From Escherichia coli (GTDB lineage Bacteria > Pseudomonadota > Gammaproteobacteria > Enterobacterales > Enterobacteriaceae), in the NCBI RefSeq assembly GCF_022846255.1, contig NZ_AP025682.1: DNA of 64,000 bases, one strand, 5' to 3'. The notes under the pieces are model-generated. The model worked only from the letters and a program-made list of their open reading frames with translations. It was not told the DNA's origin and did not search any database. Within the stretch, counting starts at the first letter, position 1, and every line of letters begins with the position of its first letter. Shown here in pieces: positions 7,665 through 49,725 of the stretch. The translations under genes and the position numbers were made by a program.

Positions 7665-9502
7665 ACATGCTTGCCTTAACCATTATTTTGCCATTGATTG
7701 GCTTCGTCCTGCTGGCGTTCTCCCGTGGGCGCTGGTCTGAAAACGTCTCGGCGATCGTCGGCGTTGGCTCTGTGGGCCTGGCGGCGCTGGTAACTGCCTT
7801 TATCGGCGTTGACTTCTTCGCTAACGGTGAGCAGGCATACAGCCAGCCGCTGTGGACGTGGATGTCGGTAGGCGACTTTAACATCGGTTTTAACCTGGTG
7901 CTGGACGGCCTGTCGCTGACCATGCTCTCGGTGGTCACTGGTGTGGGTTTCCTTATTCACATGTACGCCTCCTGGTATATGCGCGGTGAAGAGGGCTACT
8001 CTCGCTTCTTCGCTTACACCAACCTGTTCATCGCCAGCATGGTAGTTCTGGTGCTTGCCGACAACCTGCTGCTGATGTACCTCGGCTGGGAAGGCGTGGG
8101 CCTGTGCTCCTATCTGCTGATCGGTTTCTATTACACCGATCCGAAGAATGGCGCAGCGGCAATGAAAGCGTTCGTCGTGACCCGTGTGGGTGACGTGTTC
8201 CTCGCTTTCGCGCTGTTCATTCTTTACAACGAACTGGGCACCCTGAACTTCCGCGAAATGGTGGAACTGGCACCAGCGCACTTTGCTGACGGCAATAACA
8301 TGCTGATGTGGGCGACGCTGATGCTGCTGGGCGGTGCGGTCGGTAAATCTGCGCAGTTGCCGTTGCAGACATGGCTTGCCGACGCGATGGCGGGCCCGAC
8401 GCCTGTCTCCGCGCTGATCCACGCTGCAACAATGGTAACCGCGGGTGTCTACCTGATCGCCCGTACCCACGGCCTGTTCCTGATGACGCCGGAAGTTCTG
8501 CATCTGGTGGGCATTGTTGGGGCGGTTACGCTGCTGCTGGCCGGTTTTGCGGCGCTGGTACAGACCGACATCAAACGTGTTCTCGCTTACTCTACCATGA
8601 GCCAGATTGGCTACATGTTCCTCGCGCTTGGCGTGCAGGCATGGGATGCGGCGATTTTCCACTTGATGACCCACGCGTTCTTTAAAGCGCTGCTGTTCCT
8701 GGCATCCGGTTCCGTCATTCTGGCCTGCCATCACGAACAGAACATCTTTAAGATGGGTGGTCTGCGTAAATCTATTCCGCTGGTTTATCTCTGCTTCCTG
8801 GTGGGCGGCGCAGCACTGTCGGCACTGCCGCTGGTCACTGCGGGCTTCTTCAGTAAGGATGAGATCCTCGCGGGTGCGATGGCGAATGGACATATCAATC
8901 TGATGGTGGCAGGTCTGGTCGGTGCGTTTATGACCTCGCTTTACACCTTCCGTATGATTTTCATCGTCTTCCACGGAAAAGAACAAATTCACGCTCACGC
9001 CGTGAAAGGGGTAACTCACAGCCTGCCGCTGATTGTGCTGCTGATCCTTTCCACCTTCGTTGGCGCACTGATTGTACCGCCGCTGCAGGGCGTGCTTCCG
9101 CAAACGACGGAACTGGCGCACGGCAGCATGTTGACCCTGGAAATTACCTCTGGCGTGGTCGCGGTGGTCGGCATTCTGCTGGCTGCCTGGCTATGGCTGG
9201 GTAAACGTACTCTGGTGACCTCCATCGCCAACAGTGCGCCGGGCCGTCTGCTGGGTACCTGGTGGTACAACGCCTGGGGCTTTGACTGGCTGTACGACAA
9301 AGTGTTCGTCAAGCCGTTCCTGGGTATTGCCTGGTTGCTGAAACGCGATCCGCTGAACTCAATGATGAACATCCCGGCTGTCCTTTCCCGCTTTGCAGGT
9401 AAAGGTCTGCTGTTAAGCGAGAACGGTTATCTGCGCTGGTATGTGGCATCCATGAGCATCGGTGCGGTCGTGGTGCTGGCACTGTTGATGGTACTGCGTT
9501 GA
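7661..9502 (+). CDS. nuoL: NADH-quinone oxidoreductase subunit L (antiporter-like)
   Basis: 613 aa polytopic membrane ORF; operon position. Confidence 0.92.
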
Positions 9503-9540
9503 GTTAAGGATTGTGGGATTGCCCCTGGGCATATAAGAAC

Positions 9541-9578
9541 GTAGGTCGGATAAGCCGTCTTCGCGGCGCATCCGACAC
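9541..9578. repeat. REP (repetitive extragenic palindromic) element in nuoL-nuoM spacer
   Basis: gtaggtcggataagccgtcttcgcggcgcatccgac; reverse complement resembles the GCCGGATGCGGCG...CTTATCCGGCCTAC palindromic unit family. Confidence 0.7.
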
Positions 9579-9665
9579 TACCCCCAGTCCGAAGAGAATT
9601 TTCTGTCGTGAGAATTCGTTGAAAATCCGGTCCTGACGGGACTTTTACAAGGAATAAAGATCGCC

Positions 9666-11195
9666 ATGTTACTACCCTGGCTAATATTAATTCCCTTTAT
9701 CGGCGGCTTCCTGTGCTGGCAGACCGAACGCTTTGGCGTCAAGGTGCCGCGCTGGATCGCGCTGGTAACCATGGGATTGACGCTGGCGCTGTCGCTGCAA
9801 CTGTGGTTGCAGGGCGGTTATTCACTGACGCAATCCGCCGGAATTCCGCAGTGGCAGTCTGAATTCGACATGCCGTGGATCCCGCGTTTTGGTATCTCTA
9901 TCCATCTCGCCATTGACGGTCTGTCGTTGCTGATGGTCGTGCTGACCGGTCTGCTCGGTGTGCTGGCGGTACTCTGTTCGTGGAAAGAGATCGAAAAATA
10001 CCAGGGCTTCTTCCACCTCAACCTGATGTGGATCCTGGGCGGCGTTATCGGCGTGTTCCTTGCCATCGACATGTTCCTGTTCTTCTTCTTCTGGGAAATG
10101 ATGCTGGTGCCGATGTACTTCCTGATCGCACTGTGGGGGCATAAAGCCTCTGACGGTAAAACGCGTATCACGGCGGCAACCAAGTTCTTCATTTACACCC
10201 AGGCGAGTGGTCTGGTGATGTTGATCGCCATCCTGGCGCTGGTTTTCGTTCACTACAATGCGACCGGCGTCTGGACCTTCAACTATGAAGAGCTGCTGAA
10301 TACGCCGATGTCTAACGGCGTGGAATATCTGTTGATGCTGGGCTTCTTCATCGCCTTCGCGGTGAAAATGCCGGTGGTTCCGCTGCATGGCTGGTTACCG
10401 GATGCGCACTCCCAGGCACCGACCGCCGGTTCCGTTGACCTCGCGGGGATCTTGCTGAAAACCGCCGCTTACGGTCTGTTGCGTTTCTCCTTGCCGCTGT
10501 TCCCGAACGCGTCGGCAGAGTTTGCGCCAATCGCTATGTGGCTGGGTGTTATCGGCATCTTCTATGGTGCGTGGATGGCCTTCGCCCAGACCGATATCAA
10601 ACGTCTGATCGCCTACACCTCGGTTTCCCACATGGGCTTCGTGCTGATTGCTATCTACACCGGCAGCCAGTTGGCCTACCAGGGCGCGGTAATCCAGATG
10701 ATTGCGCACGGCTTGTCGGCGGCGGGTCTGTTTATTCTTTGTGGTCAGCTTTATGAACGTATCCATACCCGCGACATGCGCATGATGGGCGGTCTGTGGA
10801 GCAAAATGAAATGGCTGCCAGCACTGTCGCTGTTCTTTGCGGTGGCAACGCTTGGGATGCCTGGCACCGGTAACTTCGTCGGCGAATTTATGATTCTGTT
10901 CGGCAGCTTCCAGGTGGTCCCGGTGATTACCGTTATCTCTACCTTTGGGCTGGTCTTTGCATCTGTTTATTCGCTGGCGATGCTGCATCGCGCTTACTTC
11001 GGCAAAGCGAAAAGCCAGATTGCCAGCCAGGAACTGCCAGGGATGTCGCTGCGTGAGCTGTTTATGATCCTGTTGCTGGTGGTGCTGCTGGTACTGCTGG
11101 GCTTCTATCCGCAGCCGATTCTGGATACCTCGCACTCCGCGATTGGCAATATCCAGCAGTGGTTTGTTAATTCCGTTACTACTACAAGGCCGTAA
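9666..11195 (+). CDS. nuoM: NADH-quinone oxidoreductase subunit M (antiporter-like)
   Basis: 509 aa polytopic membrane ORF; operon position. Confidence 0.92.
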   Translation: MLLPWLILIPFIGGFLCWQTERFGVKVPRWIALVTMGLTLALSLQLWLQGGYSLTQSAGIPQWQSEFDMPWIPRFGISIHLAIDGLSLLMVVLTGLLGVLAVLCSWKEIEKYQGFFHLNLMWILGGVIGVFLAIDMFLFFFFWEMMLVPMYFLIALWGHKASDGKTRITAATKFFIYTQASGLVMLIAILALVFVHYNATGVWTFNYEELLNTPMSNGVEYLLMLGFFIAFAVKMPVVPLHGWLPDAHSQAPTAGSVDLAGILLKTAAYGLLRFSLPLFPNASAEFAPIAMWLGVIGIFYGAWMAFAQTDIKRLIAYTSVSHMGFVLIAIYTGSQLAYQGAVIQMIAHGLSAAGLFILCGQLYERIHTRDMRMMGGLWSKMKWLPALSLFFAVATLGMPGTGNFVGEFMILFGSFQVVPVITVISTFGLVFASVYSLAMLHRAYFGKAKSQIASQELPGMSLRELFMILLLVVLLVLLGFYPQPILDTSHSAIGNIQQWFVNSVTTTRP

Positions 11196-11201
11196 ATCGC
11201 C

Positions 11202-12659
11202 ATGACAATAACTCCACAAAACCTGATCGCACTGCTACCGTTGCTGATCGTCGGCTTGACGGTGGTGGTTGTGATGCTCTCCATTGCGTGGCGACGCAAT
11301 CATTTCCTCAACGCTACGCTCTCGGTTATTGGGCTTAACGCGGCGCTGGTTTCGCTCTGGTTTGTCGGCCAGGCGGGCGCTATGGACGTTACGCCGCTGA
11401 TGCGCGTTGATGGTTTCGCCATGCTTTACACCGGGCTGGTATTGTTGGCGAGCCTCGCCACCTGTACTTTCGCCTACCCGTGGCTTGAAGGCTATAACGA
11501 CAACAAGGATGAGTTCTACCTGTTGGTGTTAATTGCCGCGCTGGGCGGGATCCTGCTGGCGAATGCCAACCATCTGGCGTCTCTGTTCCTCGGTATCGAA
11601 CTGATCTCTTTGCCGCTGTTTGGCCTGGTCGGTTACGCTTTCCGCCAGAAACGTTCGCTGGAAGCCAGTATCAAATACACCATCCTTTCTGCCGCAGCGT
11701 CTTCTTTCCTGCTGTTCGGTATGGCGCTGGTGTATGCGCAGTCTGGCGACCTGTCGTTTGTCGCACTGGGTAAAAACCTCGGCGACGGTATGCTCAACGA
11801 GCCGCTGTTGCTGGCAGGTTTCGGCCTGATGATTGTTGGCCTCGGCTTCAAACTCTCTCTGGTGCCGTTCCACCTGTGGACGCCAGACGTATACCAGGGC
11901 GCGCCTGCGCCGGTTTCCACTTTCCTGGCGACGGCGAGCAAAATCGCTATCTTCGGCGTGGTGATGCGTTTGTTCCTTTACGCACCGGTGGGTGACAGTG
12001 AAGCGATTCGCGTAGTGCTGGCGATTATCGCCTTTGCCTCCATCATCTTCGGTAACCTGATGGCGCTGAGCCAGACCAATATCAAACGTCTGCTCGGTTA
12101 CTCATCTATCTCTCACCTCGGCTATCTGCTGGTGGCGCTGATTGCGCTGCAAACTGGCGAGATGTCGATGGAAGCGGTAGGGGTTTACCTGGCAGGTTAT
12201 CTGTTCAGCAGCCTCGGCGCGTTCGGCGTGGTCAGCCTGATGTCCAGCCCGTATCGTGGCCCGGATGCTGATTCCCTGTTCTCTTACCGCGGTCTGTTCT
12301 GGCATCGTCCGATCCTCGCGGCGGTGATGACGGTGATGATGCTGTCTCTGGCCGGTATCCCGATGACGCTGGGCTTTATCGGTAAGTTCTACGTGCTGGC
12401 GGTCGGTGTCCAGGCACACTTGTGGTGGCTGGTGGGTGCCGTGGTTGTCGGTTCGGCAATCGGCCTCTATTACTACCTGCGCGTGGCGGTGAGCCTGTAT
12501 CTTCACGCCCCGGAACAACCAGGTCGCGATGCACCATCAAACTGGCAGTACAGCGCGGGCGGTATCGTGGTGCTGATCTCTGCACTGTTGGTACTGGTGC
12601 TGGGTGTATGGCCACAACCGCTGATTAGCATTGTGCGGTTAGCAATGCCGCTGATGTAA
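11202..12659 (+). CDS. nuoN: NADH-quinone oxidoreductase subunit N (antiporter-like)
   Basis: 485 aa polytopic membrane ORF; last gene of nuo operon. Confidence 0.92.
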
Positions 12660-12679
12660 ACAGTCAGTTTGTAAGTCAG

Positions 12680-12712
12680 AAAGCCGCCGACATGTTCGGC
12701 GGTTTTTTTTGG
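12680..12712 (+). terminator. Rho-independent terminator after nuoN
   Basis: GC-rich hairpin ccgccga-catgt-tcggcgg followed by a run of eight T. Confidence 0.65.
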
Positions 12713-12725
12713 TGCCCTGACACCA

Positions 12726-29136: not shown

Positions 29137-30107
<971 letters not shown>

Positions 30108-31247
30108 TTATTGTCCTGCGAGTTGCTGAAGGGCTGTGATGACGCGGTCGGCATCGGCGGTAGTCATATCCGGGAACAGCGGCAACGAACAGATGCGTTC
30201 GCTATTCCATTCGGTATTCGGTAACGACAGCGTGGGAAAACGCTCGCGATAATATTTTTGTGTGTGAGCGGCGCGGAAATGTAACCCGGTACCAATACCT
30301 CTTTCTTTTAACGCTTCCATCAACGCATCGCGACTGATACCACAACGTTGTTCATCGACACGAATAATAAACAGATGCCAGGCGTGAACGTGCGGCCAGG
30401 CGGGAAGGCTTAATGGCTGAAAAGGGAGAGCTGCCAGTGCTTGTTGATATTGCAGAGCAATTTCGCGCCGACGGGTGTTGAGGTGCTCTAATTTGGCTAA
30501 CTGGGTCAGGGCAATCGCGGCGTTAATATCGGTCAGATTATACTTATAGCCCGGCGTTAAGACTTCAGCTTGCGGTGCACGGCCCCAGGTTTGTCTGTCA
30601 TAGGCATCGACACCCAGACCGTGAAATTTTAGCATCCGTAGCTGGCGGGCAAGGTTTTCATTATCTGTAACAATCAGGCCACCTTCCGCACAGGTAATAT
30701 TTTTGATGGCGTGAAACGAAAAAATAGCGGTACCTTTTGCACCAATATGTCGCCCTTTGTAATACGTACCGACGGCATGGGCAGCATCTTCGATAACTGC
30801 GATGCCGTAACGTTCGCCAATGGCGCGAATGGCGTCAATATCTGCTGGCGCACCGGCATAATGCACCGGAATGATGGCTTTAGTGCGTGGCGTAATGGCT
30901 GCTTCGATCGTTTCAGGAGTGACCATCAGCGTATCGCGGTCGACATCCACCATTACCGGCGTTGCACCCAACAAGGAGATCATATTGAGGGTTGAAACCC
31001 AGGTCAGGGAAGGCGTAATCACTTCATCGCCCTTGCCAATTTCCAACGCCATTAGCGTGATATGCATTCCGGCGGTGGCTGAACTGACCGCGATGGCATG
31101 CTGATTTCCCGTCAACTGGCAAAAGGCTTGTTCAAGCGCGTGATTCTTCGGACCGGTTGTGATCCAACCGGATTCGAGAACCTCTTTAACTGCAGCGAGT
31201 TCCTCCACGCCCATTGCTGGTCGCGAAAAAGGCAAAAATTCTGACAT
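30108..31247 (-). CDS. arnB: UDP-4-amino-4-deoxy-L-arabinose aminotransferase ArnB
   Basis: ORF 30108..31280; in-frame ATG at 31247 (MSEFLPF...) has a GGAAGG Shine-Dalgarno; 31265 is an alternative start. Confidence 0.88.
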
Positions 31248-31345
31248 TGCTTTTCCTTCCGCCATTGAATACCTGTCCACTTATATTTGCTATAAAGAGT
31301 GTTGTGTATATTTTGCCATTTGGAGCAAAATTTTAAGGATAGAAT

Positions 31346-31362
31346 ATTAACTTAACCTTAAG
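31346..31362 (-). promoter_or_regulatory. Candidate PmrA (BasR) box in the arnB-ais divergent promoter region
   Basis: minus-strand CTTAAGgttaaGTTAAT resembles the YTTAAK-N5-YTTAAK direct repeat, about 85-100 bp upstream of arnB. Confidence 0.45.
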
Positions 31363-31554
31363 AAACTAATATTAGACGTAAATATTGAAATTTTTATATT
31401 TTTTCTTATTTAGGCTTTGCATTTGGCAAAATTTTGAGGCATTTTGCCGGCATCGCAGGATTTTTAATATTACACCAACTGCTAATTATCGCCAGAAATG
31501 TCGCTCAATTTCACGGTAATTGTCTGGTTGCGCTTGTCTATAGGTGGAGTTTAC

Positions 31555-32157
31555 GTGTTAGCTTTTTGCCGCTCTTCGTTGAAGTCAAAAAAATATTTCA
31601 TCATTTTACTGGCGCTCGCTGCAATTGCCGGACTGGGTACTCATGCCGCCTGGAGTAGCAATGGTTTGCCACGTATCGACAATAAAACGCTGGCCAGACT
31701 GGCACAGCAGCATCCGGTTGTCGTTTTGTTTCGCCATGCTGAACGTTGCGATCGTTCAACCAACCAATGCTTGTCAGATAAAACAGGTATTACGGTTAAA
31801 GGTACCCAGGATGCCCGTGAACTGGGCAACGCTTTTAGTGCTGATATCCCTGATTTCGATCTTTATTCCAGTAATACCGTCCGGACCATTCAGTCGGCGA
31901 CCTGGTTTTCAGCGGGTAAAAAGCTGACGGTAGATAAACGACTTCTTCAGTGCGGTAATGAGATTTATAGTGCAATTAAGGACTTACAAAGCAAAGCGCC
32001 TGATAAAAATATCGTTATTTTCACCCATAATCATTGCCTGACATATATTGCTAAAGATAAGCGTGATGCGACATTTAAACCTGATTATCTGGATGGTTTA
32101 GTCATGCATGTGGAAAAAGGCAAAGTTTATCTGGATGGGGAATTCGTTAACCACTAA
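31555..32157 (+). CDS. ais: Ais / PmrG, putative lipopolysaccharide core heptose(II)-phosphate phosphatase (histidine-phosphatase family)
   Basis: ORF 31498..32157; GTG at 31555 with GGTGGAG Shine-Dalgarno gives 200 aa with signal peptide; RHAER motif. Confidence 0.85.
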
Positions 32158-32195
32158 ATTTTCAATCTGACAGCCAGTAATGGCTGTCATCATTG

Positions 32196-32621
32196 TTACA
32201 GAAGACCTTTCAAACGTAACGTTTTTCGGGTGGCGACATTCAAATCATAGTGCGCCAGATCTTCAGGTTTTACCCACGCGTAGTCCTGAAACTCTTCGTT
32301 TATTTTCACTTCTCGGTTGGCAGAAACGCAGTCAAAAATCAGGTAAATCATATAAATCTCTTCCTTGCGACCATCTGCATACGTCTTGGTGCGAATATCA
32401 TCGCTGAAGGTCCACGGCGTGATTTCTGTCAAAAGCAGCTGTTCTCCCAGTTCTTCGCGAATTTCGCGGCGTAGTGCCTCTTCAATTCGTTCGCCAGGCT
32501 CTACGCCGCCACCCGAAAGCGCCCATTGACCGGGGAAAACGCCGCGATCGTCGGCCATTTTACACAGCAAATAAGCACCATCATTTTGAATCAAAGGGCA
32601 TACAATAGTCCGTTGTCGCAC
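32196..32621 (-). CDS. nudI: Nudix nucleoside triphosphatase NudI
   Basis: 141 aa ORF with Nudix box [24 protein letters not shown]. Confidence 0.88.
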
Positions 32622-32899
32622 AGGGGTATTCCTTATAAATAAAAAGAAACCATGAGAATACGGTAACTCAGAAATATGTGAAAGTGACAGTAATCTCTTT
32701 TGCGATTATAACTGCACTTATTATTATTTTTGTGTGTATCGATAAAGTATGTTTATTTTTTCGGCGTTTAATTATTTAAGAAGTATTTAGTTACAATAAG
32801 TGACTAGATCCCTTTTTTCGCTCATTGAATCCTCTGTGCCAGGCAGTACAATCCCGCAGCTTTGGGAATTTTGATTTATTGCTTGTGGGAGAGGGGAAA

Positions 32900-33442
32900 A
32901 TGAAAAAAATTGCGCTAGCAGGTCTGGCCGGAATGCTGTTGGTTTCTGCATCGGTCAATGCAATGAGCATCAGCGGCCAGGCGGGTAAAGAATACACCAA
33001 TATTGGTGTCGGTTTTGGGACTGAATCAACGGGCCTGGCGTTAAGCGGTAACTGGACACATAACGACGACGACGGTGACGTCGCGGGCGTGGGGCTGGGG
33101 TTGAATCTGCCTCTCGGGCCGTTAATGGCGACCGTTGGCGGAAAAGGCGTTTACACCAACCCGAATTACGGCGATGAAGGTTATGCCGCAGCGGTAGGAG
33201 GTGGTTTGCAGTGGAAAATTGGCAACAGCTTCCGCTTGTTTGGTGAGTATTACTACTCTCCGGATTCGCTCTCCAGCGGAATTAAAAGTTATGAAGAAGC
33301 GAATGCTGGCGCGCGTTACACCATTATGCGTCCAGTCAGCATTGAGGCTGGCTACCGTTACCTGAACCTGGCAGGTAAAAATGGCAATCGTGATAACGCC
33401 ATTGCTGATGGTCCGTATGTTGGGGTAAATGCCAGCTTCTGA
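32900..33442 (+). CDS. yfaZ: YfaZ family outer-membrane protein
   Basis: ORF 32825..33442; ATG at 32900 with GAGGGGA Shine-Dalgarno gives 180 aa with signal peptide; ends in aromatic residue (ASF). Confidence 0.82.
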   Translation: MKKIALAGLAGMLLVSASVNAMSISGQAGKEYTNIGVGFGTESTGLALSGNWTHNDDDGDVAGVGLGLNLPLGPLMATVGGKGVYTNPNYGDEGYAAAVGGGLQWKIGNSFRLFGEYYYSPDSLSSGIKSYEEANAGARYTIMRPVSIEAGYRYLNLAGKNGNRDNAIADGPYVGVNASF

Positions 33443-33541
33443 CGCCTTCCGGCGCGGCGTTCTGTCGCGCCATTCAGTTTCTTACTACGCCCTGTCTCCC
33501 TTTGCGTTATAGTGATTCGATAACAAAAGCAGGAGATAACC

Positions 33542-34744
33542 ATGTTAAAAGTGGAAATGTTATCCACCGGGGATGAAGTGTTACACGGGCAAATCGTTGA
33601 CACTAACGCTGCCTGGCTGGCCGATTTTTTCTTTCATCAGGGGCTGCCATTATCTCGCCGCAATACGGTGGGGGATAACCTTGATGACTTAGTCACCATT
33701 CTTCGCGAACGTAGTCAGTACGCCGATGTGTTGATCGTTAACGGCGGGCTGGGACCGACCAGTGATGATTTAAGCGCACTCGCCGCTGCGACAGCAAAAG
33801 GTGAAGGCCTGGTGCTGCATGAAGCCTGGCTCAAAGAGATGGAACGCTATTTCCATGAACGGGGACGAGTAATGGCACCGAGCAACCGTAAACAAGCGGA
33901 GCTGCCTGCCAGTGCTGAATTTATCAATAACCCGGTAGGCACTGCCTGTGGTTTTGCCATACAGCTTAATCGTTGCCTGATGTTCTTTACCCCCGGCGTA
34001 CCGTCAGAATTTAAGGTGATGGTCGAGCACGAAATCCTGCCGCGCCTGCGCGAGCGTTTTTCTTTACCACAGCCGCCGGTTTGCCTGCGTTTGACTACCT
34101 TTGGTCGTTCGGAAAGCGATCTGGCACAAAGCCTGGACACTCTACAACTGCCGCCGGGCGTAACAATGGGCTATCGCTCCTCAATGCCGATTATCGAACT
34201 GAAACTCACCGGACCGGCAAGCGAGGAACAGGCGATGGAAAAACTGTGGCTGGACGTTAAACGTGTTGCCGGACAGAGCGTGATTTTCGAAGGCACCGAA
34301 GGACTGCCCGCGCAGATCAGTCGCGAATTGCAGAGCCGCCAGTTCAGCCTGACGCTGAGCGAGCAATTCACCGGTGGTTTATTGGCTTTGCAACTTTCTC
34401 GCGCAGATGCTCCATTGCTGGCGTGTGAAGTGGTTCCTTCACAGGAGGAAACCCTGGCGCAAACTGCGCACTGGATTACAGAACGGCGGGCGAACCATTT
34501 TGCTGGGTTGGCACTGGCTGTTTCTGGTCTGGAAGATGAGCATCTCAACTTTGCACTAGCCACGCCAGACGGCACTTTCGCTTTGCGTGTACATTTCAGT
34601 GCCACACGCTACAGTCTGGCTATTCGCCAGGAAGTCTGCGCAATGATGGCGCTTAATATGCTACGCCGTTGGTTAAACGGCCAGGACATCGCCAGCGAGC
34701 ATGGCTGGATTGAGGTTGTTGAGTCCATGACCTTATCTGTCTGA
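33542..34744 (+). CDS. yfaY: CinA-like protein YfaY (MoCF-binding domain)
   Basis: 400 aa ORF, CinA N-terminal motif LSTGDEVLHGQIVDTNAAWLA. Confidence 0.85.
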   Translation: MLKVEMLSTGDEVLHGQIVDTNAAWLADFFFHQGLPLSRRNTVGDNLDDLVTILRERSQYADVLIVNGGLGPTSDDLSALAAATAKGEGLVLHEAWLKEMERYFHERGRVMAPSNRKQAELPASAEFINNPVGTACGFAIQLNRCLMFFTPGVPSEFKVMVEHEILPRLRERFSLPQPPVCLRLTTFGRSESDLAQSLDTLQLPPGVTMGYRSSMPIIELKLTGPASEEQAMEKLWLDVKRVAGQSVIFEGTEGLPAQISRELQSRQFSLTLSEQFTGGLLALQLSRADAPLLACEVVPSQEETLAQTAHWITERRANHFAGLALAVSGLEDEHLNFALATPDGTFALRVHFSATRYSLAIRQEVCAMMALNMLRRWLNGQDIASEHGWIEVVESMTLSV

Positions 34745-34963
34745 TTCCGCCACTCTGTGCCGGTTTACTGCACCGGCACATTCCCCCTCCGGCAAAATTT
34801 GTCCAACCTGTTGTACTCAATAAGAAAAAATCCGTGCGCTGATTCACAAATTTGTGCGTAATTTCTCCAGTCCGCTGGACGAGAAACGGGATTTGATGCG
34901 CTTCACAATTTTACTCCCCCTGAGCAACGAGACTGATTCCAGTATCTAAGACTGGAGTCCAGT

Positions 34964-35746
34964 ATGTTGGAATCAAGCAAAGTTCCCGCCCTGACACGGG
35001 CTATTGATATTCTCAATTTGATTGCCCGGATTGGCCCCTGTAGTGCTGCGACGATCATTGACACATTGGGGATCCCTAAAAGCACAGCCTATTTGCTGCT
35101 TAATGAACTCAGGCGTCAGCGTTTTCTTAGCCTTGATCATCAGGAAAATTTTTGTTTGTGGACCAGGCTGGTGGAGCTTTCCGGTCATGCGTTAAGCAAG
35201 ATGGATCTCCGGGAACTGGCTCGACCGCGTTTGACGCAACTGATGGATACCACCGGGCTGTTATGTCACCTGGGGATTATTGATAACGGCAGCGCTTATT
35301 ACATTTTGAAAGTGGAGTCATCAGCCACTATCAGCGTGCGTTCCCATGAAGGAAAAAGCCTTTCGCTTTATCGCTCCGGAATAGGTAAATGCCTGCTTGC
35401 CTGGCAACCTGCAGCTGTACAGCAAAGCATTATCGAAGGGCTGGTCTGGGAACGGGCGACACCCACAACGATTACTCATCCACAGCAACTTCACGAAGAA
35501 CTGGCGCGTATTCGCCGCCAGGGCTGGAGCTATGACAACGGCGAAGATTACGCCGATGTCCGTTGTGTCGCTGCGCCGGTGTTTAACGCCAATAACGAGC
35601 TTACTGCTGCGATTTCGGTGGTCGGTACCCGCTTACAAATCAATGAAGAATACCGTGATTATCTGGCGGGCAAGGCCATTGCCTGCGCCAGGGATATTTC
35701 ACGTTTGTTGGGATGGAAAAGTCCCTTTGACTTACAGGCCTCATAA
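34964..35746 (+). CDS. rhmR: IclR-family transcriptional regulator of L-rhamnonate utilisation
   Basis: 260 aa ORF with N-terminal HTH; upstream of rhmD-rhmT-rhmA. Confidence 0.85.
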
Positions 35747-35760
35747 CAATGGAGAACATC

Positions 35761-36966
35761 ATGACCCTACCAAAAATCAAACAGGTTCGCGCCTGGTTTA
35801 CTGGCGGTGCGACAGCAGAAAAAGGCGCTGGCGGCGGTGATTATCACGACCAGGGGGCGAATCACTGGATTGATGATCATATTGCCACCCCGATGAGTAA
35901 ATACCGCGAATACGAGCAGTCCCGCCAGTCATTTGGCATTAACGTTCTTGGCACGTTGATTGTTGAAGTTGAAGCAGAAAACGGCCAGACCGGATTCGCC
36001 GTTTCGACAGCCGGTGAAATGGGTTGTTTTATTGTCGAAAAACATCTTAACCGTTTCATTGAGGGTAAATGCGTCAGTGATATCAAACTGATCCACGATC
36101 AAATGCTCAATGCCACCCTGTATTACTCCGGCTCTGGTGGCCTGGTGATGAATACGATTTCCTGTGTCGATCTGGCTCTGTGGGATCTGTTCGGCAAAGT
36201 GGTCGGGCTTCCGGTTTATAAACTTTTAGGCGGCGCAGTTCGTGATGAGATTCAGTTCTACGCCACAGGTGCGCGTCCGGATCTGGCAAAAGAGATGGGC
36301 TTTATCGGTGGCAAAATGCCGACGCACTGGGGGCCACATGATGGCGATGCGGGGATCCGCAAAGATGCCGCTATGGTCGCGGATATGCGTGAAAAATGCG
36401 GTGAGGATTTCTGGTTAATGCTCGACTGCTGGATGAGTCAGGACGTGAACTATGCCATCAAACTGGCCCACGCTTGCGCGCCCTATAACCTGAAATGGAT
36501 CGAAGAGTGCCTGCCGCCACAGCAGTATGAAGGTTATCGCGAACTGAAACACAACGCACCAGCGGGGATGATGGTCACCAGCGGTGAGCACCACGGCACA
36601 CTGCAATCTTTCCGTACGCTTTCAGAAACCGGTATCGACATTATGCAGCCGGATGTTGGCTGGTGCGGTGGCTTAACCACGCTGGTGGAAATTGCCGCAA
36701 TCGCCAAATCCAGGGGGCAACTGGTGGTGCCGCACGGTTCGTCTGTTTACTCCCACCATGCGGTGATCACCTTCACCAATACGCCATTCAGCGAATTCCT
36801 GATGACCAGCCCGGATTGTTCAACGATGCGTCCGCAATTTGATCCGATTCTGCTTAATGAGCCAGTGCCGGTGAATGGTCGTATTCATAAATCAGTGCTT
36901 GATAAACCCGGTTTCGGCGTCGAACTCAATCGTGACTGCAATTTGAAACGCCCCTACAGCCACTAA
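35761..36966 (+). CDS. rhmD: L-rhamnonate dehydratase (enolase superfamily)
   Basis: ORF 35749..36966; [13 protein letters not shown]... from 35761; start ambiguous by four codons. Confidence 0.88.
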
Positions 36967-37022
36967 TCATTCCGGGCGTTGCTGTGACAACGGTAACGCC
37001 CACATATTCTAAGGAGCTTTTT

Positions 37023-38312
37023 ATGAGCACCGCTTTGCTTGACGCCGTGGTGAAGAAAAACCGTGCGCGTTTAATTCCGTTTATGTTGGCGCTGTATGTG
37101 CTGGCGTTTCTCGACCGTTCGAATATCGGTTTTGCCAAACAGACCTACCAGATTGATACCGGGCTGAGTAATGAAGCTTATGCGCTGGGAGCAGGCATTT
37201 TCTTTGTGGTATATGCGTTTCTGGGTGTTCCGGCGAATCTTTTGATGCGCAAACTGGGGGCAAGAACCTGGATTGGTACGACAACACTGCTGTGGGGATT
37301 TCTTTCGGCAGCCATGGCATGGGCCGATACTGAAGCGAAATTTCTGATCGTTCGTACTCTGCTTGGTGCTGCGGAGGCCGGGTTCTTCCCTGGTATGATT
37401 TATCTCACCTCGCAATGGTTTCCGCAGCGTAATCGCGCCAGCATTATGGGGCTGTTCTATATGGGCGCACCGTTGGCGTTAACACTGGGATCACCGCTTT
37501 CCGGCGCGCTGCTGGAGATGCATGGATTTATGGGGCATCCCGGCTGGTTCTGGATGTTTGTGATTGAAGGATTGCTGGCAGTCGGCGCTGGGGTATTCAC
37601 ATTCTTTTGGCTTGATGACACGCCGGAGCAGGCACGTTTTCTGAGTAAAGAAGAAAAAACGTTGCTTATCAACCAACTGGCAAGTGAAGAACAACAGAAA
37701 GTGACTTCTCGATTGAGCGATGCGCTGCGTAATGGCCGAGTCTGGCAACTGGCGATTATCTACCTGACCATTCAGGTGGCGGTTTACGGATTAATTTTCT
37801 TCCTGCCGACGCAGGTTGCTGCATTGTTGGGGACAAAAGTGGGCTTTACGGCGTCGGTGGTCACCGCCATTCCGTGGGTCGCGGCCTTGTTTGGGACCTG
37901 GCTTATTCCGCGCTATTCCGATAAAACCGGCGAGCGGCGTAATGTCGCGGCGCTGACATTACTGGCGGCAGGCATTGGTATTGGTCTCTCCGGGCTGCTT
38001 TCTCCAGTACTGGCGATCGTTGCGCTGTGTGTTGCAGCCATCGGGTTTATTGCCGTACAGCCAGTGTTCTGGACGATGCCGACACAGCTTCTTTCCGGTA
38101 CGGCGCTGGCTGCGGGGATTGGTTTTATAAACCTGTTTGGTGCAGTGGGCGGGTTTATTGCCCCGATCCTGCGCGTGAAAGCAGAAACGTTATTTTCCAG
38201 CGATGCGGCGGGATTACTGACGCTGGCAGCGGTGGCGGTCATCGGTTCGCTGATTATTTTCACTCTGCGTGTAAATCGCACTGTTGCGCAGACCGACGTG
38301 GCACATCATTAA
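37023..38312 (+). CDS. rhmT: MFS transporter, putative L-rhamnonate transporter
   Basis: ORF 36984..38312; ATG at 37023 gives 429 aa with 12 predicted TM segments. Confidence 0.85.
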   Translation: MSTALLDAVVKKNRARLIPFMLALYVLAFLDRSNIGFAKQTYQIDTGLSNEAYALGAGIFFVVYAFLGVPANLLMRKLGARTWIGTTTLLWGFLSAAMAWADTEAKFLIVRTLLGAAEAGFFPGMIYLTSQWFPQRNRASIMGLFYMGAPLALTLGSPLSGALLEMHGFMGHPGWFWMFVIEGLLAVGAGVFTFFWLDDTPEQARFLSKEEKTLLINQLASEEQQKVTSRLSDALRNGRVWQLAIIYLTIQVAVYGLIFFLPTQVAALLGTKVGFTASVVTAIPWVAALFGTWLIPRYSDKTGERRNVAALTLLAAGIGIGLSGLLSPVLAIVALCVAAIGFIAVQPVFWTMPTQLLSGTALAAGIGFINLFGAVGGFIAPILRVKAETLFSSDAAGLLTLAAVAVIGSLIIFTLRVNRTVAQTDVAHH

Positions 38313-38328
38313 ATAGTTAAGGAACACG

Positions 38329-39132
38329 ATGAACGCATTATTAACCAATCCCTTTAAAGAACGTTTACGCAAGGGCGAAGTGCAAATTGGTCTGTGGTTA
38401 AGCTCAACGACTGCCTATATGGCAGAAATTGCCGCCACTTCCGGTTATGACTGGTTGCTGATTGACGGGGAGCATGCGCCAAACACCATTCAGGATCTTT
38501 ATCACCAGCTACAGGCGGTAGCGCCCTATGCCAGCCACCCCGTGATCCGTCCGGTGGAAGGCAGTAAGCCGCTGATTAAACAAGTCCTGGATATTGGCGC
38601 GCAAACTCTACTGATCCCAATGGTCGATACTGCCGATCAGGCACGTCAGGTGGTGTCTGCCACGCGCTATCCTCCCTACGGTGAGCGTGGTGTTGGGGCC
38701 AGTGTGGCACGGGCTGCGCGCTGGGGACGCATTGAGAATTACATGGCGCAAGTCAACGATTCGCTTTGTCTGTTGGTGCAGGTGGAAAGTAAAACGGCAC
38801 TGGATAACCTGGACGAAATCCTCGATGTTGAAGGGATTGATGGCGTGTTTATTGGACCTGCGGATCTTTCTGCGTCGTTGGGCTACCCGGATAACGCCGG
38901 GCACCCGGAAGTGCAGCGAATTATTGAAACCAGCATTCGGCGGATCCGTGCTGCGGGTAAAGCGGCTGGTTTTCTGGCTGTGGCTCCTGATATGGCGCAG
39001 CAATGCCTGGCGTGGGGAGCGAACTTTGTCGCTGTTGGCGTTGACACGATGCTCTACAGCGATGCCCTGGATCAACGACTGGCGATGTTTAAATCAGGCA
39101 AAAATGGGCCACGCGTAAAAGGTAGTTATTGA
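38329..39132 (+). CDS. rhmA: 2-keto-3-deoxy-L-rhamnonate aldolase (HpcH/HpaI family)
   Basis: 267 aa ORF; cluster context. Confidence 0.88.
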
Positions 39133-39172
39133 TATCAAAGGCCCATGGGGATCGGCTGTGGGCCTGTGTTAA

Positions 39173-39346
39173 TTAGTGGTTATTCGCTGCCAGATCGGCT
39201 TCGCTTAGCTGAGTGGCCGCGAGCACCTGATCACGATCAATGCCCTGCTCCAGCATGCGCAAAGCAATTTTAATGGCTTGTTCATGCATGCCTTCCTGCC
39301 AGCCAATTTGATGTCCTTCCTGCCGTAGCCGTTCAGCAATAGTCAT
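39173..39346 (-). CDS. ypaA: ypaA: free-standing 57-codon ORF that duplicates the C-terminal tail of RpnE/YfaD (annotated as a pseudogene fragment in K-12, as I recall)
   Basis: 39173..39358 is a direct repeat of the yfaD 3' end (39359..39601 minus the WQEGKLEG repeat); retains AAAAGGAGAG Shine-Dalgarno and ATG at 39346; below the size cutoff of the ORF track. Confidence 0.6.
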   Translation of the reverse strand: MTIAERLRQEGHQIGWQEGMHEQAIKIALRMLEQGIDRDQVLAATQLSEADLAANNH

Positions 39347-39358
39347 TAATCTCTCCTT

Positions 39359-40318
39359 TTAATGACCGTTCGGAATATCAGCATCAGTGAGTTGGGTTGT
39401 CGCCAGCACAATCTCACGTTCAAAGCCCTGTTCCAGCATGCGCAAGGCAATTTTAATGGCTTGTTCATGCATACCTTCTACTTTGCCTTTCTGCAAACCC
39501 TCCAATTTCCCCTCCTGCCAGCCTTCTAATTTACCTTCCTGCCAGCCAATTTGATGTCCTTCCTGCCGCAGCCGTTCAGCAATAGTCATTAATCTCTCCT
39601 TTTGTAGTGGTGAACGTTCGGCAATCTCCTCAATAAAACGGGTGAAACGGGAGGTATCGCCGCATTGCAGCAGATAATTAAACAGCGTTTGTAGCTGGCT
39701 GTCATTAGTGAAGCCTCTAACCAAAAGCGTGGTAATCCTGTCGACCATACCGATTAAATCGCGGTCGCGAATATGCTTTTGAATCAGTTCCAGCAGAGCT
39801 ATACGCCGATGTTGCATGATCTCATCGTCAGGTACGATGGTGATATCCACCAACGGAAAAGCTTCGGTGTACAACTGCCGGGCAAGTTGCGGATCGTCAA
39901 ACTCATCCAGCCAGTTGAGTGAGTACGGGTAGGGCGAGGTTTCGCCATGATAAAACAGCAATGGTACCACCAGCGGAACTCTGTCATAGCCTTTATCCAG
40001 GTGACGTTGCATGGCGGCAGTGGCATAGCGCATTAGTCGAAAAGCCATATTCTTTTCTGCAGAACTTTGATGTTCAATCACGCAGTAGATATAGCCGTCA
40101 CCGTCGCTGGTTTCCACCGACCACAAAACATCCGAGTAGTAAGCGCGTAAACTTTTTTCAATAAAGCTGGTGGGTTCCAGGCGTAAGGTTTGCAGGTTGC
40201 AAAGCTTGCGCAGCGGCTCTGGCAGATGTATTTCGAGAAAATCTCGCGCCGTATCGGGCGAGAACATAAAGGTTTTAAATACCGCATCATGCGGGGAGGA
40301 GGTTGTTGATTCGGTCAT
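39359..40318 (-). CDS. yfaD: Rpn-family recombination-promoting nuclease (YhgA-like, PD-(D/E)XK) RpnE/YfaD
   Basis: 319 aa [25 protein letters not shown]...; C-terminal WQEGKLEG tandem repeat; start may be a downstream Met. Confidence 0.85.
39489..39560 (-). repeat. Intragenic tandem repeat in rpnE encoding [16 protein letters not shown]
   Basis: repeated cctgccagcc / ttcctgccagcc units on the + strand. Confidence 0.7.
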
Positions 40319-40511
40319 GGTTGTCCGTCACCTGATGTTTATGATGACGCGACATTACGGTTATCCCAGGCCTTTGACATCTGCCAGTTTCAGCCTTTGC
40401 GAGACGTTTTCAGAGGAATTTTCACTGCGTTGCAACGTATACATTGAGCGCGGAATCGTGGACGCAAAAATGCCCGGTAACAACATGCTTACCGGGCATC
40501 AGATGGGAGTT

Positions 40512-44576
<4,065 letters not shown>

Positions 44577-44672
44577 TGTTATCCCTCTGAAGTTCGTTTT
44601 TTACCATTTAGCCATAGTAAAAACATGAATTGTTTGATTTCGCGCATATTCGCTCATAATTCGAAAGTGAAA

Positions 44673-44738
44673 CGTGATTTCATGCGTCATTTTGAACATT
44701 CTGTAAATCTTATTTAATAATGTGTGCGGTAATTCACA
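44673..44738. promoter_or_regulatory. CRP-like sites in the glpACB/glpTQ divergent control region
   Basis: TGTGCggtaatTCACA at 44723..44738 is a near-consensus CRP site; weaker cGTGAtttcatgCGTCA at 44673..44689. Confidence 0.5.
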
Positions 44739-44848
44739 TTTAATTTCTGAATGTTTTCTTAACATCGCGGCAACTCAAGAAACGGCAGGTTCTCCCACTG
44801 AATCAGGCTGTTAATCATAAATAAGACCACGGGCCACGGAGGCTTTCA

Positions 44849-46207
44849 ATGTTGAGTATTTTTAAACCAGCGCCACACAAAGCGCGCTTACCTGCCGCGG
44901 AGATCGATCCGACTTATCGTCGATTGCGCTGGCAAATTTTCCTGGGGATATTCTTTGGCTATGCTGCTTACTATTTGGTTCGTAAGAACTTTGCGCTTGC
45001 TATGCCTTACCTGGTCGAGCAGGGATTCTCACGCGGTGATTTAGGTTTCGCGCTTTCTGGGATCTCGATCGCTTATGGATTTTCGAAATTCATCATGGGC
45101 TCGGTGTCGGATCGCTCGAATCCGCGCGTTTTCCTGCCCGCAGGTTTGATTCTGGCGGCGGCAGTGATGTTGTTTATGGGCTTTGTGCCGTGGGCGACGT
45201 CGAGCATTGCGGTGATGTTTGTACTGTTGTTCCTCTGCGGTTGGTTCCAGGGGATGGGGTGGCCGCCGTGTGGTCGTACTATGGTGCACTGGTGGTCGCA
45301 GAAAGAACGTGGCGGCATTGTGTCAGTGTGGAACTGTGCGCACAACGTCGGTGGTGGTATTCCGCCGCTGCTGTTCCTGCTGGGGATGGCCTGGTTCAAT
45401 GACTGGCACGCGGCGCTCTATATGCCCGCTTTCTGCGCCATTCTGGTGGCACTGTTCGCCTTTGCGATGATGCGCGATACCCCGCAATCTTGTGGCCTGC
45501 CGCCGATCGAAGAGTACAAAAATGATTATCCGGACGACTATAACGAAAAAGCGGAACAGGAACTGACTGCGAAGCAAATCTTCATGCAGTACGTGCTGCC
45601 GAACAAATTGCTGTGGTACATCGCTATCGCCAACGTGTTCGTTTATCTGCTGCGTTACGGCATCCTCGACTGGTCACCGACTTATCTGAAAGAGGTGAAA
45701 CACTTCGCGCTGGATAAATCCTCCTGGGCCTACTTCTTCTATGAGTATGCGGGCATTCCGGGCACCCTGCTGTGCGGCTGGATGTCGGATAAAGTCTTCC
45801 GTGGCAACCGTGGGGCCACCGGCGTCTTCTTTATGACACTGGTGACCATCGCGACTATCGTTTACTGGATGAACCCGGCAGGTAACCCAACCGTAGATAT
45901 GATTTGTATGATTGTTATCGGCTTCCTGATCTACGGCCCTGTGATGCTGATCGGTCTGCATGCGCTGGAACTGGCACCGAAAAAAGCGGCAGGTACGGCA
46001 GCGGGCTTTACCGGGCTGTTTGGTTACCTCGGCGGTTCGGTGGCGGCGAGCGCGATTGTTGGCTACACCGTGGACTTCTTCGGCTGGGATGGCGGCTTTA
46101 TGGTAATGATTGGCGGCAGCATTCTCGCGGTTATCTTGTTGATTGTTGTGATGATTGGCGAAAAACGTCGCCATCAGGAATTACTGCAAAAACGCAACGG
46201 AGGCTAA
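44849..46207 (+). CDS. glpT: Glycerol-3-phosphate:phosphate antiporter (MFS)
   Basis: 452 aa polytopic ORF; divergent from glpA. Confidence 0.92.
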
Positions 46208-46211
46208 TGGC

Positions 46212-47288
46212 ATGAAATTGACGCTGAAAAACCTTAGCATGGCGATCATGATGAGCACTATGGTCATGGGAAGTAGTGCAATGGCGGCGGACAGCAACGA
46301 AAAAATAGTCATCGCCCATCGCGGTGCCAGTGGATATTTGCCGGAGCATACGCTGCCAGCAAAAGCGATGGCTTATGCGCAGGGAGCGGATTATCTGGAA
46401 CAGGATTTGGTGATGACGAAGGACGACCATCTGGTTGTCCTGCATGACCATTATCTCGATCGTGTTACTGATGTTGCCGATCGTTTCCCGGATCGGGCGC
46501 GCAAAGACGGTCGTTACTACGCGATAGATTTCACGCTCGATGAAATTAAGTCACTGAAATTTACCGAAGGTTTCGATATTGAAAACGGTAAGAAAGTACA
46601 GACTTATCCGGGGCGTTTCCCGATGGGTAAATCTGACTTCCGGGTACACACTTTCGAAGAAGAGATTGAATTTGTTCAGGGGTTAAATCACTCTACCGGG
46701 AAAAATATCGGTATCTATCCAGAAATTAAAGCGCCGTGGTTCCATCATCAGGAAGGGAAGGATATTGCGGCAAAAACGCTGGAAGTGCTGAAGAAATATG
46801 GTTACACCGGTAAGGACGACAAAGTTTATTTGCAATGTTTTGATGCTGATGAGCTGAAGCGTATTAAGAATGTGCTGGAACCCAAAATGGGTATGGATCT
46901 CAATCTGGTACAGCTGATTGCCTATACCGACTGGAATGAAACGCAGCAGAAACAGCCGGACGGAAGCTGGGTTAATTACAACTACGACTGGATGTTTAAG
47001 CCGGGGGCCATGAAACAGGTGGCGGAATATGCTGATGGTATTGGTCCGGATTACCATATGTTGATTGAGGAGACATCGCAGCCGGGTAATATCAAACTCA
47101 CTGGCATGGTGCAAGATGCTCAGCAGAACAAGCTGGTAGTGCATCCTTATACCGTGCGGTCAGATAAACTGCCTGAATACACTACTGATGTGAATCAGTT
47201 ATATGATGCTCTGTATAACAAAGCGGGTGTAAATGGGCTATTTACTGATTTCCCTGATAAGGCAGTAAAATTCCTTAATAAAGAGTAA
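46212..47288 (+). CDS. glpQ: Periplasmic glycerophosphodiester phosphodiesterase
   Basis: ORF 46155..47288; ATG at 46212 with GGAGG Shine-Dalgarno gives 358 aa with signal peptide (MKLTLKNLSMAIMMSTMVMGSSAMA). Confidence 0.9.
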   Translation: MKLTLKNLSMAIMMSTMVMGSSAMAADSNEKIVIAHRGASGYLPEHTLPAKAMAYAQGADYLEQDLVMTKDDHLVVLHDHYLDRVTDVADRFPDRARKDGRYYAIDFTLDEIKSLKFTEGFDIENGKKVQTYPGRFPMGKSDFRVHTFEEEIEFVQGLNHSTGKNIGIYPEIKAPWFHHQEGKDIAAKTLEVLKKYGYTGKDDKVYLQCFDADELKRIKNVLEPKMGMDLNLVQLIAYTDWNETQQKQPDGSWVNYNYDWMFKPGAMKQVAEYADGIGPDYHMLIEETSQPGNIKLTGMVQDAQQNKLVVHPYTVRSDKLPEYTTDVNQLYDALYNKAGVNGLFTDFPDKAVKFLNKE

Positions 47289-47490
47289 ATTAACTACCGG
47301 ATGGCACTTATGTGCTATCCGATACCACTCTTCATTAAAGTCTGTGGGTTATCCTTAATTGCAATTATTTTGAGCGAGATGACTTGTTCCCGGCATAAGA
47401 TACTCGTCAATACAACACGTATTATTAAGATTTTCCTCAGCTAAACATCTATAGTCATTGTCGTTAATAAAAAACGACAGGCGATAGGGT

Positions 47491-48141
47491 ATGGCAGTTT
47501 CAGCAAAGCACGACGAATTTAATCACTGGTGGGCAACAGAGGGCGACTGGGTTGAAGAGCCTAACTATCGCCGTAATGGTATGAGCGGGGTGCAATGCGT
47601 CGAGCGCAACGGCAAAAAGCTGTATGTAAAGCGCATGACGCATCATCTGTTTCATTCCGTACGTTATCCGTTCGGCCGACCAACGATTGTCCGTGAGGTT
47701 GCGGTAATTAAAGAACTGGAACGGGCCGGTGTCATCGTGCCGAAGATCGTTTTTGGTGAAGCGGTGAAAATTGAGGGTGAATGGCGCGCGTTGCTGGTGA
47801 CTGAAGATATGGCGGGGTTCATCAGCATTGCTGACTGGTATGCCCGGCATGCAGTATCGCCTTATTCTGACGAAGTACGGCAAGCCATGTTGAAAGCAGT
47901 GGCGCTGGCGTTTAAGAAAATGCATAGCGTTAATCGTCAGCATGGCTGTTGTTATGTTCGCCATATCTATGTGAAAACAGAAGGTAAGGCAGAAGCTGGA
48001 TTTCTTGACCTGGAGAAAAGTCGTCGCCGCTTGCGTCGTGATAAAGCGATTAATCATGACTTCCGCCAGCTGGAAAAATATCTGGAGCCGATCCCCAAAG
48101 CGGACTGGGAGCAGGTGAAAGCATATTACTACGCTATGTAA
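47491..48141 (+). CDS. inaA: InaA, acid-inducible putative lipopolysaccharide kinase-family protein
   Basis: 216 aa ORF MAVSAKHDEFNHWWATEGDW... Confidence 0.82.
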   Translation: MAVSAKHDEFNHWWATEGDWVEEPNYRRNGMSGVQCVERNGKKLYVKRMTHHLFHSVRYPFGRPTIVREVAVIKELERAGVIVPKIVFGEAVKIEGEWRALLVTEDMAGFISIADWYARHAVSPYSDEVRQAMLKAVALAFKKMHSVNRQHGCCYVRHIYVKTEGKAEAGFLDLEKSRRRLRRDKAINHDFRQLEKYLEPIPKADWEQVKAYYYAM

Positions 48142-48145
48142 TCGT

Positions 48146-48183
48146 TGTAGGCCAGATAAGACGTATAAGCGTCGTATCTGGCG
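48146..48183. repeat. REP-like element between inaA and yfaE
   Basis: tgtaggccagataagacgtataagcgtcgtatctggcg, degenerate REP palindrome. Confidence 0.55.
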
Positions 48184-48194
48184 TTAAAACCAAT

Positions 48195-48449
48195 TCACAT
48201 CTCGATTTCAATATCGCCTTTTGCCCGGCAACAACAGGGCAAAATTTCCCCCGGCTGAATAAAAGCTAACGGTTCGGCAATCCAGTCCACCTGGCCTGCG
48301 ACCAGTCGGGTGCGACAGGAGCCGCAGTAACCTTCGCGGCACTGGTACTCAACCGCCACATTGTGGGATTCCAGCGCCGCCAGAAGGGAAGGGTGTTCAT
48401 CCTGGCACAGCAGTTGTGTGCCAGTAATGCGCAGGGTAACGCGGGCCAT
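48195..48449 (-). CDS. yfaE: 2Fe-2S ferredoxin YfaE (NrdB diferric-tyrosyl radical cofactor maintenance)
   Basis: 84 aa ORF with Cys motif CREGYCGSC...C; immediately downstream of nrdB. Confidence 0.88.
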   Translation of the reverse strand: MARVTLRITGTQLLCQDEHPSLLAALESHNVAVEYQCREGYCGSCRTRLVAGQVDWIAEPLAFIQPGEILPCCCRAKGDIEIEM

Positions 48450-49579: not shown

Positions 49580-49602
49580 GAATGTGTCCTGTTGGGAGTT
49601 TA

Positions 49603-49716
49603 ATGCCGGATAAGGCATTTTACGCCGCATCCTGTGCCTGATGCGACGCTGGCGCATCTTATCAGGCCTACAAAACCGAGCCGTAGGCCGGATAAGGCGT
49701 TCACGCCGCATCCTGC
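49603..49716. repeat. BIME/REP cluster within the nrdA-nrdB intercistronic spacer
   Basis: two or more gccggataaggc...gcatc palindromic units in opposite orientations. Confidence 0.75.
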
Positions 49717-49725
49717 ATCTCAATA

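Follow-up and report, generated by a model that had tools for sequence, protein, structure and literature searches.

In the stretch of Escherichia coli DNA analysed here (the window, 64,000 nucleotides in all), nuoN is followed directly by yfbM. A sequence-only reading of the window stated that in K-12 three further genes, yfbP, yfbO and yfbN, lie between these two, and took their absence as the mark of an indel. The question raised by this locus is whether genes were lost from the genome under study or whether it is K-12 that departs from the usual arrangement.

The nuoN-yfbM spacer and the K-12 cassette

The features on which the comparison is based are the following:

11202 to 12659, plus strand: nuoN, a 485-aa open reading frame, with which the nuo operon (NADH:quinone oxidoreductase I) ends; its stop codon, TAA, occupies 12657-12659.
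12660 to 12725: the convergent intergenic spacer of 66 bp, i.e., the cassette slot between nuoN and yfbM in its empty form.
12683 to 12710, plus strand: the predicted terminator hairpin and T-run of the nuo operon, from fold and conservation.
12711 to 12725: the junction segment GGTGCCCTGACACCA, from the comparison of junctions across alleles.
12726 to 13229, minus strand: yfbM, intact and convergent to nuoN, a 167-aa open reading frame; its stop codon, TGA (TCA on the plus strand), occupies 12726-12728.

The name nuoN is that of the RefSeq annotation beneath the genome matches, and the gene of the window is 98.6% identical to K-12 nuoN over 1458 nt. Its convergent neighbour matches Pfam DUF1877 (E 3.7e-35) and the PDB entry 1RYL, 'hypothetical protein yfbM' (E 1.4e-107).

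The 66 bp between the two stop codons had been described as essentially one hairpin plus a T-run, and this description is borne out to the exact coordinates, with one strong hairpin followed by T8. The hairpin starts 24 nt past the nuoN stop codon, and its arms, GCCGCCGA and TCGGCGGT (12683-12690 and 12696-12703), flank a CATGT loop (12691-12695) and are followed by the T-run at 12703-12710. The stem is made of seven Watson-Crick pairs, six of them G-C, and one G-U pair. A 76-nt stretch containing the hairpin folds at -27.1 kcal/mol (z = -4.3), a stability reached by none of 200 shuffles, and hairpin and T-run are kept in E. coli, E. whittamii, E. fergusonii and Superficieibacter, as well as in every occupied allele. 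The characters by which intrinsic terminators are recognised are found here, i.e., a G+C-rich stem-loop with 5 bp or more in the stem and 3-8 nt in the loop, a 3' T-run, a position after the last gene and conservation. The nuoN hairpin was not listed by a simple consensus terminator scan, so that fold and conservation were relied on instead; our guess is that the scan perhaps extended the stem through AAAG/TTTT pairs, consuming the T-run.

As in Rho-independent terminators of convergent genes, the predicted hairpin of the window stands where its operon ends and has a G+C-rich stem of 8 bp, a loop of 5 nt and a T8 tract. It is preceded by an A-tract and, when the minus strand is read, followed by a CTTTCT tract; unlike in those terminators, this reverse-strand T-tract is weak, and the hairpin may also terminate yfbM on that strand. 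An Rfam scan of the spacer returned sub-threshold chance matches only, with no family at threshold. Thus, a structured RNA was rejected as an explanation of the spacer, the candidates being sroD (19 bits, cut-off 50), ryfA (18, cut-off 80) and the fluoride riboswitch (16, cut-off 34).

The layout given in that reading is the one seen in K-12 (strain RV308, locus L001; loci fetched for comparison are cited by such numbers), where the order is nuoN, yfbP (-), yfbO (-), yfbN (+), yfbM (-), yfbL, yfbK, elaD, and the distance from the nuoN stop to the yfbM stop is 2610 bp, against 66 bp in the window. The absence of yfbN, yfbO and yfbP from the window was likewise confirmed, since a blastn comparison of the K-12 genes with positions 11001-15000 found no counterparts of the three, with matches to nuoN, the terminator, yfbM and yfbL only. 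The window shares with the K-12 MG1655 layout (yfbM-yfbN-yfbO-yfbP-nuoN) its homologous flanks and the hairpin (97.5% identity over the latter), and differs from it in that the T-run of K-12 is shortened to T5 and is then divergent. Homology extends through the hairpin up to GGCGGTTTTT and is found again from ATCACCCAAC, in the region of the yfbM stop; between these flanks the window has TTTGGTGCCCTGACACC and K-12 about 2.57 kb, with a G+C content of approximately 32-46%, compared with 55-60% in nuoN. Within the junction segment, the first four bases (GGTG) are common to most occupied alleles, and the remaining 11 nt or so stand in the place of 1.5-2.6 kb in other alleles.

When the K-12 cassette was searched together with its flanks, no pair of direct or inverted repeats was found at the two junctions, and inspection of the junction alignments by eye showed no target-site duplication and no convincing deletion scar or microhomology. 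The direct repeats that were looked for at the suggestion of the sequence-only reading were thus not found in any convincing form. The candidates were ATGGTG/ATTGTG, ATGGT/ATGGGT and CCCTGACACC against CCCAGACATC (8 of 10 positions matching); at such lengths they carry no significance, so that nothing about a deletion mechanism can be concluded from the scar. The K-12 cassette encodes YfbP, YfbO and YfbN alone, with no integrase, transposase or recombinase among them, and an ARAGORN search of all 64 kb of the window was negative for tRNA and tmRNA genes. The cassette therefore shows none of the marks by which a genomic island or mobile element was sought, namely a recombinase gene, terminal repeats and adjacency to a tRNA or tmRNA gene. 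PADLOC (E<=0.01) and PHROGs both gave zero matches for YfbP, YfbO, YfbN, YfbM and a 191-aa protein that occupies the slot in other genomes, and an origin of the cassette from a defence island or a prophage was rejected on these grounds.

Distribution of the empty junction and occupants of the slot

The frequency of the junction was determined in 5426 complete RefSeq E. coli genomes with a 151-bp probe (12620-12770) that would be interrupted by an insertion as small as an IS200. The probe is uninterrupted in 4212 of the 5426 genomes (77.6%) and 100% identical in several, a count which, like all those given here, is inflated by laboratory derivatives of K-12 and B and is no measure of natural frequencies. 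Its carriers include O157:H7 and O55:H7 strains. A longer junction-spanning query, of 1070 bp, is contiguous in 4309/5426 genomes, and this span is also found in O104:H4 and O26 strains. The K-12 cassette is present at a coverage of at least 80% in 946 genomes (17%), and it is at least 99% identical in 985, many of which are laboratory K-12 derivatives.

The window carries the majority, empty allele, and K-12 is the minority reference at this locus. The layout of the window had been taken as the odd one, to be explained by reference to K-12; it is instead the majority state, most E. coli genomes showing the same succession of nuoN, terminator and yfbM, the outcome that the sequence-only reading had itself named as its refutation. 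It is the standard non-K-12 arrangement, annotated as such in thousands of RefSeq genomes, and belongs to ordinary pan-genome variation, at an accessory-gene slot of a known kind; nothing peculiar occurred at this site in the window's own genome. From their absence in about 78% of the complete genomes examined it follows that yfbN, yfbO and yfbP are dispensable. The lesson for method is that K-12 is a minority reference here, so that an absence relative to K-12 does not signal an event in the genome that is being read.

The same counts bear on two explanations that would place the cause in this genome. The wording of the sequence-only reading implied a recent deletion, specific to the genome or its lineage, through short direct repeats. 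The one argument for it is the absence of the genes relative to K-12, but unrelated complete genomes have the junction at 100% identity, it occurs in 4212 genomes and in two other species, and the ends of the K-12 cassette carry no direct repeats; this explanation is very improbable and in effect refuted by the census. An artefact of assembly or scaffolding that collapsed the region is scarcely credible, taking into account that the same contiguous sequence appears in thousands of independently finished genomes and that both flanking genes are intact, with a conserved terminator between them.

When positions 9000-17000 and 30000-50000 of the window were compared with the 5426 complete genomes, the best match was only 98.4-98.9% identical, which indicates that the lineage of the window, perhaps a Shigella or a divergent clade of E. 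coli, is poorly represented in the complete-genome collection.

At least seven occupancy states of the nuoN/yfbM slot were found. The arrangements seen, other than the empty allele and the K-12 cassette, include:

yfbO' and yfbN' without yfbP, 93% and 85% identical to K-12 at the nucleotide level: VTB96929v (L005), about 29 genomes.
yfbN' and the gene of the 191-aa SMI1/KNR4-like protein: WL297 (L003), 14 E. coli genomes.
A 409-aa gene in the position of yfbP: Escherichia sp. E2748 (L022).
An IS200 directly past the T-run: L012 and L013.
ISEcB1, an IS3-family element, in the hairpin loop, with a CATG duplication: a B-strain derivative (L011).
An IS66-family element within yfbM: L002.
An IS5-associated deletion from the terminator to elaD: L004.

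The 409-aa protein of Escherichia sp. E2748 was considered as a full-length YfbP and discarded; BLASTP similarity is absent and the gene is unrelated. The allele of the B strain is the empty allele with ISEcB1 in the hairpin loop. As a separate observation, the nuoN terminator is a target of insertion sequences, both in its loop (ISEcB1) and directly past its T-run (IS200), and in the B-strain derivative NEBExpress (L011:3500-5060) the native nuo terminator hairpin is split by ISEcB1.

Within E. coli, YfbN proteins are 70-100% identical, compared with 100% for the flanking NuoN and 97-99% for YfbM. The 66-bp spacer is the common null allele of a small, fast-evolving accessory-gene slot situated between the predicted nuo terminator and the 3' end of yfbM; in this allele, found in about 78% of E. 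coli, the terminator directly abuts yfbM. The further suggestion that the interval between nuoN and rbn is a hotspot of gene-content variation is upheld by the number of slot states and by the neighbouring genes, yfbK and elaD being both present, as in K-12, in just 1597/5426 genomes.

Several observations concern this neighbouring stretch in its own right. The yfbL gene of the window (M28 metallopeptidase; 13332-14286, minus strand) is a pseudogene; it lacks 8 bp that are present in K-12, and the resulting frameshift leaves open reading frames of 124 and 199 aa; yfbL is likewise annotated as a pseudogene in EC12, the closest complete genome. Between yfbL and rbn (14287-14649) yfbK is missing, and a short 5' remnant of elaD is expected at about 14361-14471, by transfer of coordinates from EC12, where a 111-bp 'deubiquitinase' fragment is annotated. 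The whole arrangement of yfbL pseudogene, elaD remnant and missing yfbK is collinear with that strain. The loss of elaD from the window fits its reported absence from phylogroup B2 (PMC12575377). In E. fergusonii (L014:10984-11967) and Superficieibacter (L017:11772-12773), a gene with CheW and response-regulator domains lies between yfbK and rbn, in the position of K-12 elaD, and is another alternative occupant of the nuoN-rbn interval.

Polarity and origin of the empty allele

E. coli, E. whittamii (L009) and a divergent Escherichia genome that is a separate GTDB species representative (L008) share one form of the empty junction, TGGTGC(C/T)CTGA(C/T)ACC-ATCACCC; over the segment at 12711-12725, the latter two differ from the window by 1-3 substitutions. 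That all three have this junction in common points to the empty allele having arisen once.

Homologues of YfbN are nearly confined to Escherichia. Wherever the context sufficed, the yfbN-like gene comes immediately after the nuoN terminator, on its 3' side, and has the orientation of nuo. The relatives compared are:

E. fergusonii (L014): nuoN, yfbN' (71% aa identity), SMI1/KNR4-like gene, yfbM, yfbK, CheW/response-regulator gene, rbn.
Escherichia sp. E2748 (L022): yfbN-like gene (87% aa), directly 3' of the nuoN terminator.
Superficieibacter (L017): yfbN-like gene (46% aa), directly 3' of the nuoN terminator.
Klebsiella-like contig (L020): nuoN, yfbN' (46% aa), rbn.
MOD1-EC7003 (L007): yfbN adjoining yfbM; the stretch ends within yfbN, and the nuoN side lies outside it.

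The polarity drawn from them rests on synteny in this handful of genomes, E. albertii having been left out of the comparison since its contig ends 14 nt past yfbM. The motif TTTTTTTATGGT past the terminator is common to empty and occupied alleles across genera. The simplest reading of the synteny and of this shared motif is that the occupied site is most likely ancestral and that the empty allele would be one old deletion. Against this polarity it counts that the Klebsiella-like homologue of yfbN is rare, its cluster having a single member, and could itself have been acquired.

K-12 does not appear to preserve the ancestral state either. Its 272-bp yfbN-yfbM spacer (L001:9839-10110) aligns at 75% nucleotide identity with the 3' portion of the gene for the 191-aa SMI1/KNR4-like protein, as it occurs in E. 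fergusonii and E. coli WL297, and it looks like an unannotated, decayed remnant of such a gene; the K-12 allele would itself be derived, because it holds this remnant. In WL297, the segment from the 3' end of nuoN into yfbM (L003:6000-9686) is 97.7% identical in nucleotide sequence, over 3.7 kb, to that of E. fergusonii (L014:5359-9045), which suggests that a whole allele was imported between species by homologous recombination.

Taking these comparisons together, the empty state is probably one old deletion allele that persists beside divergent occupied alleles and is exchanged with them through the flanking core genes. The ancestral Escherichia chromosome would have carried a yfbN-like gene and at least one partner gene immediately past the terminator. 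A single old deletion would have removed the sequence from just past the T-run (...TTTTTTTATGGTG) to about 10 nt short of the yfbM stop codon, and the resulting allele would since have coexisted with several highly divergent occupied ones. Homologous recombination in nuoN on one side and in yfbM and yfbL on the other would carry these alleles from one lineage to another, and also across the boundaries of Escherichia species. K-12 would then carry a derived occupied allele, with yfbP and yfbO between the terminator and yfbN and the putative SMI1/KNR4-like remnant between yfbN and yfbM. The lack of junction scars is explained in the same way, because homologous recombination in conserved flanks would leave none.

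The low G+C content of the cassette and its identity of at least 99% in 985 genomes would also be expected of a cassette that was acquired recently and has spread through a part of E. coli, which weighs against the deletion. In the corresponding explanation, E. coli started out with the empty site and yfbP-yfbO-yfbN reached the K-12 group by horizontal transfer, i.e., there was an insertion in K-12 and no deletion in the window. The empty allele, found in 78% of the genomes, in many pathotypes and in two other Escherichia species, accords with such a gain, but yfbN-like genes stand at the same position in E. fergusonii, unclassified Escherichia isolates, Superficieibacter and the Klebsiella-like contig. 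A gain is also in keeping with the modular, lineage-dependent content of the cassette, and with WL297, according to which whole alleles may be imported from another species; however, a target-site duplication, inverted repeats, an integrase and a tRNA gene are all lacking at the ends of the K-12 cassette, and the SMI1/KNR4-like remnant argues for descent from an occupied ancestor. An acquisition by the K-12 group is, on this evidence, the less probable alternative, though a conceivable one for E. coli itself. It is also possible that an occupied allele was re-imported by recombination into an E. coli lineage with an empty site, which would blend gain and deletion. The old deletion, maintained alongside the occupied alleles, is the reading retained here.

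The absent genes and known systems

For the window itself the finding matters little, and the uncharacterised yfbN, yfbO and yfbP genes of K-12 are of modest side interest. YfbP gave only weak, sub-threshold TPR matches; YfbO had no match in the Pfam copy used, and precomputed annotation assigns it to PF27222 (YfbO). In the literature, the four gene names were found in lists or incidental mentions only, with the functions called unknown, and no paper on the slot was found. Since the slot alleles are far more divergent than their flanks, this divergence is a possible guide to assigning functions to yfbN, yfbO and yfbP.

The N-terminus of YfbN shows weak, sub-threshold UBA-like matches (UBA_4, HYPK UBA and the UBA part of NAC). 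Such signals recur in three divergent homologues, those of K-12 (L001:9122-9838), WL297 (L003:7643-8359) and the Klebsiella-like contig (L020:7001-7738). They are curious in view of the nearby elaD, which encodes a deubiquitinase, and they may be due to chance.

The 191-aa protein of E. fergusonii and 14 E. coli genomes is named SMI1/KNR4 family protein by NCBI, and it scores 22.2 bits (E 2.4e-4) against SMI1_KNR4, for which the gathering cut-off is 25.4. It has been considered that the slot might be an ancient polymorphism of presence/absence and of alleles across Escherichia, kept under balancing or diversifying selection, in which YfbN and its swappable partners (YfbO, YfbP, the 409-aa protein and the SMI1/KNR4-like protein) would form a small module of the conflict or immunity type; the null allele of the window would then have been selected rather than left by neutral loss. 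We regard this proposal as unlikely.

Among the known systems that come near the slot are the arrays of SUKH (SMI1/KNR4) immunity genes which, as Zhang, Iyer and Aravind reportedly described in 2011, belong to polymorphic toxin systems. The slot differs from these arrays in that the 191-aa protein falls below the Pfam cut-off, and that neither a toxin gene nor a remnant of a toxin domain was found beside the SMI1/KNR4-like gene in the loci fetched. Moreover, YfbN, YfbO, YfbP and YfbM match no immunity or defence model, and the window itself has no SMI1/KNR4-like gene. It resembles them in an occupant with a weak SMI1_KNR4 match and in the unusual divergence of its alleles.

A second comparison is with the chromosomal hotspots of E. 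coli, sites between core genes at which accessory genes are reportedly turned over, a concept that is said to go back to Touchon et al. in 2009 and Oliveira et al. in 2017. The nuoN/yfbM slot is unlike them in being very small (0-2.6 kb), in having no integrase, tRNA, prophage or recognised defence genes, and in that yfbN, one of its occupants, seems to be long established and not newly acquired. As in those hotspots, it holds alternative gene sets and IS elements in different genomes, its cassettes are low in G+C, it has an empty allele, and its contents would be exchanged through homologous flanks.
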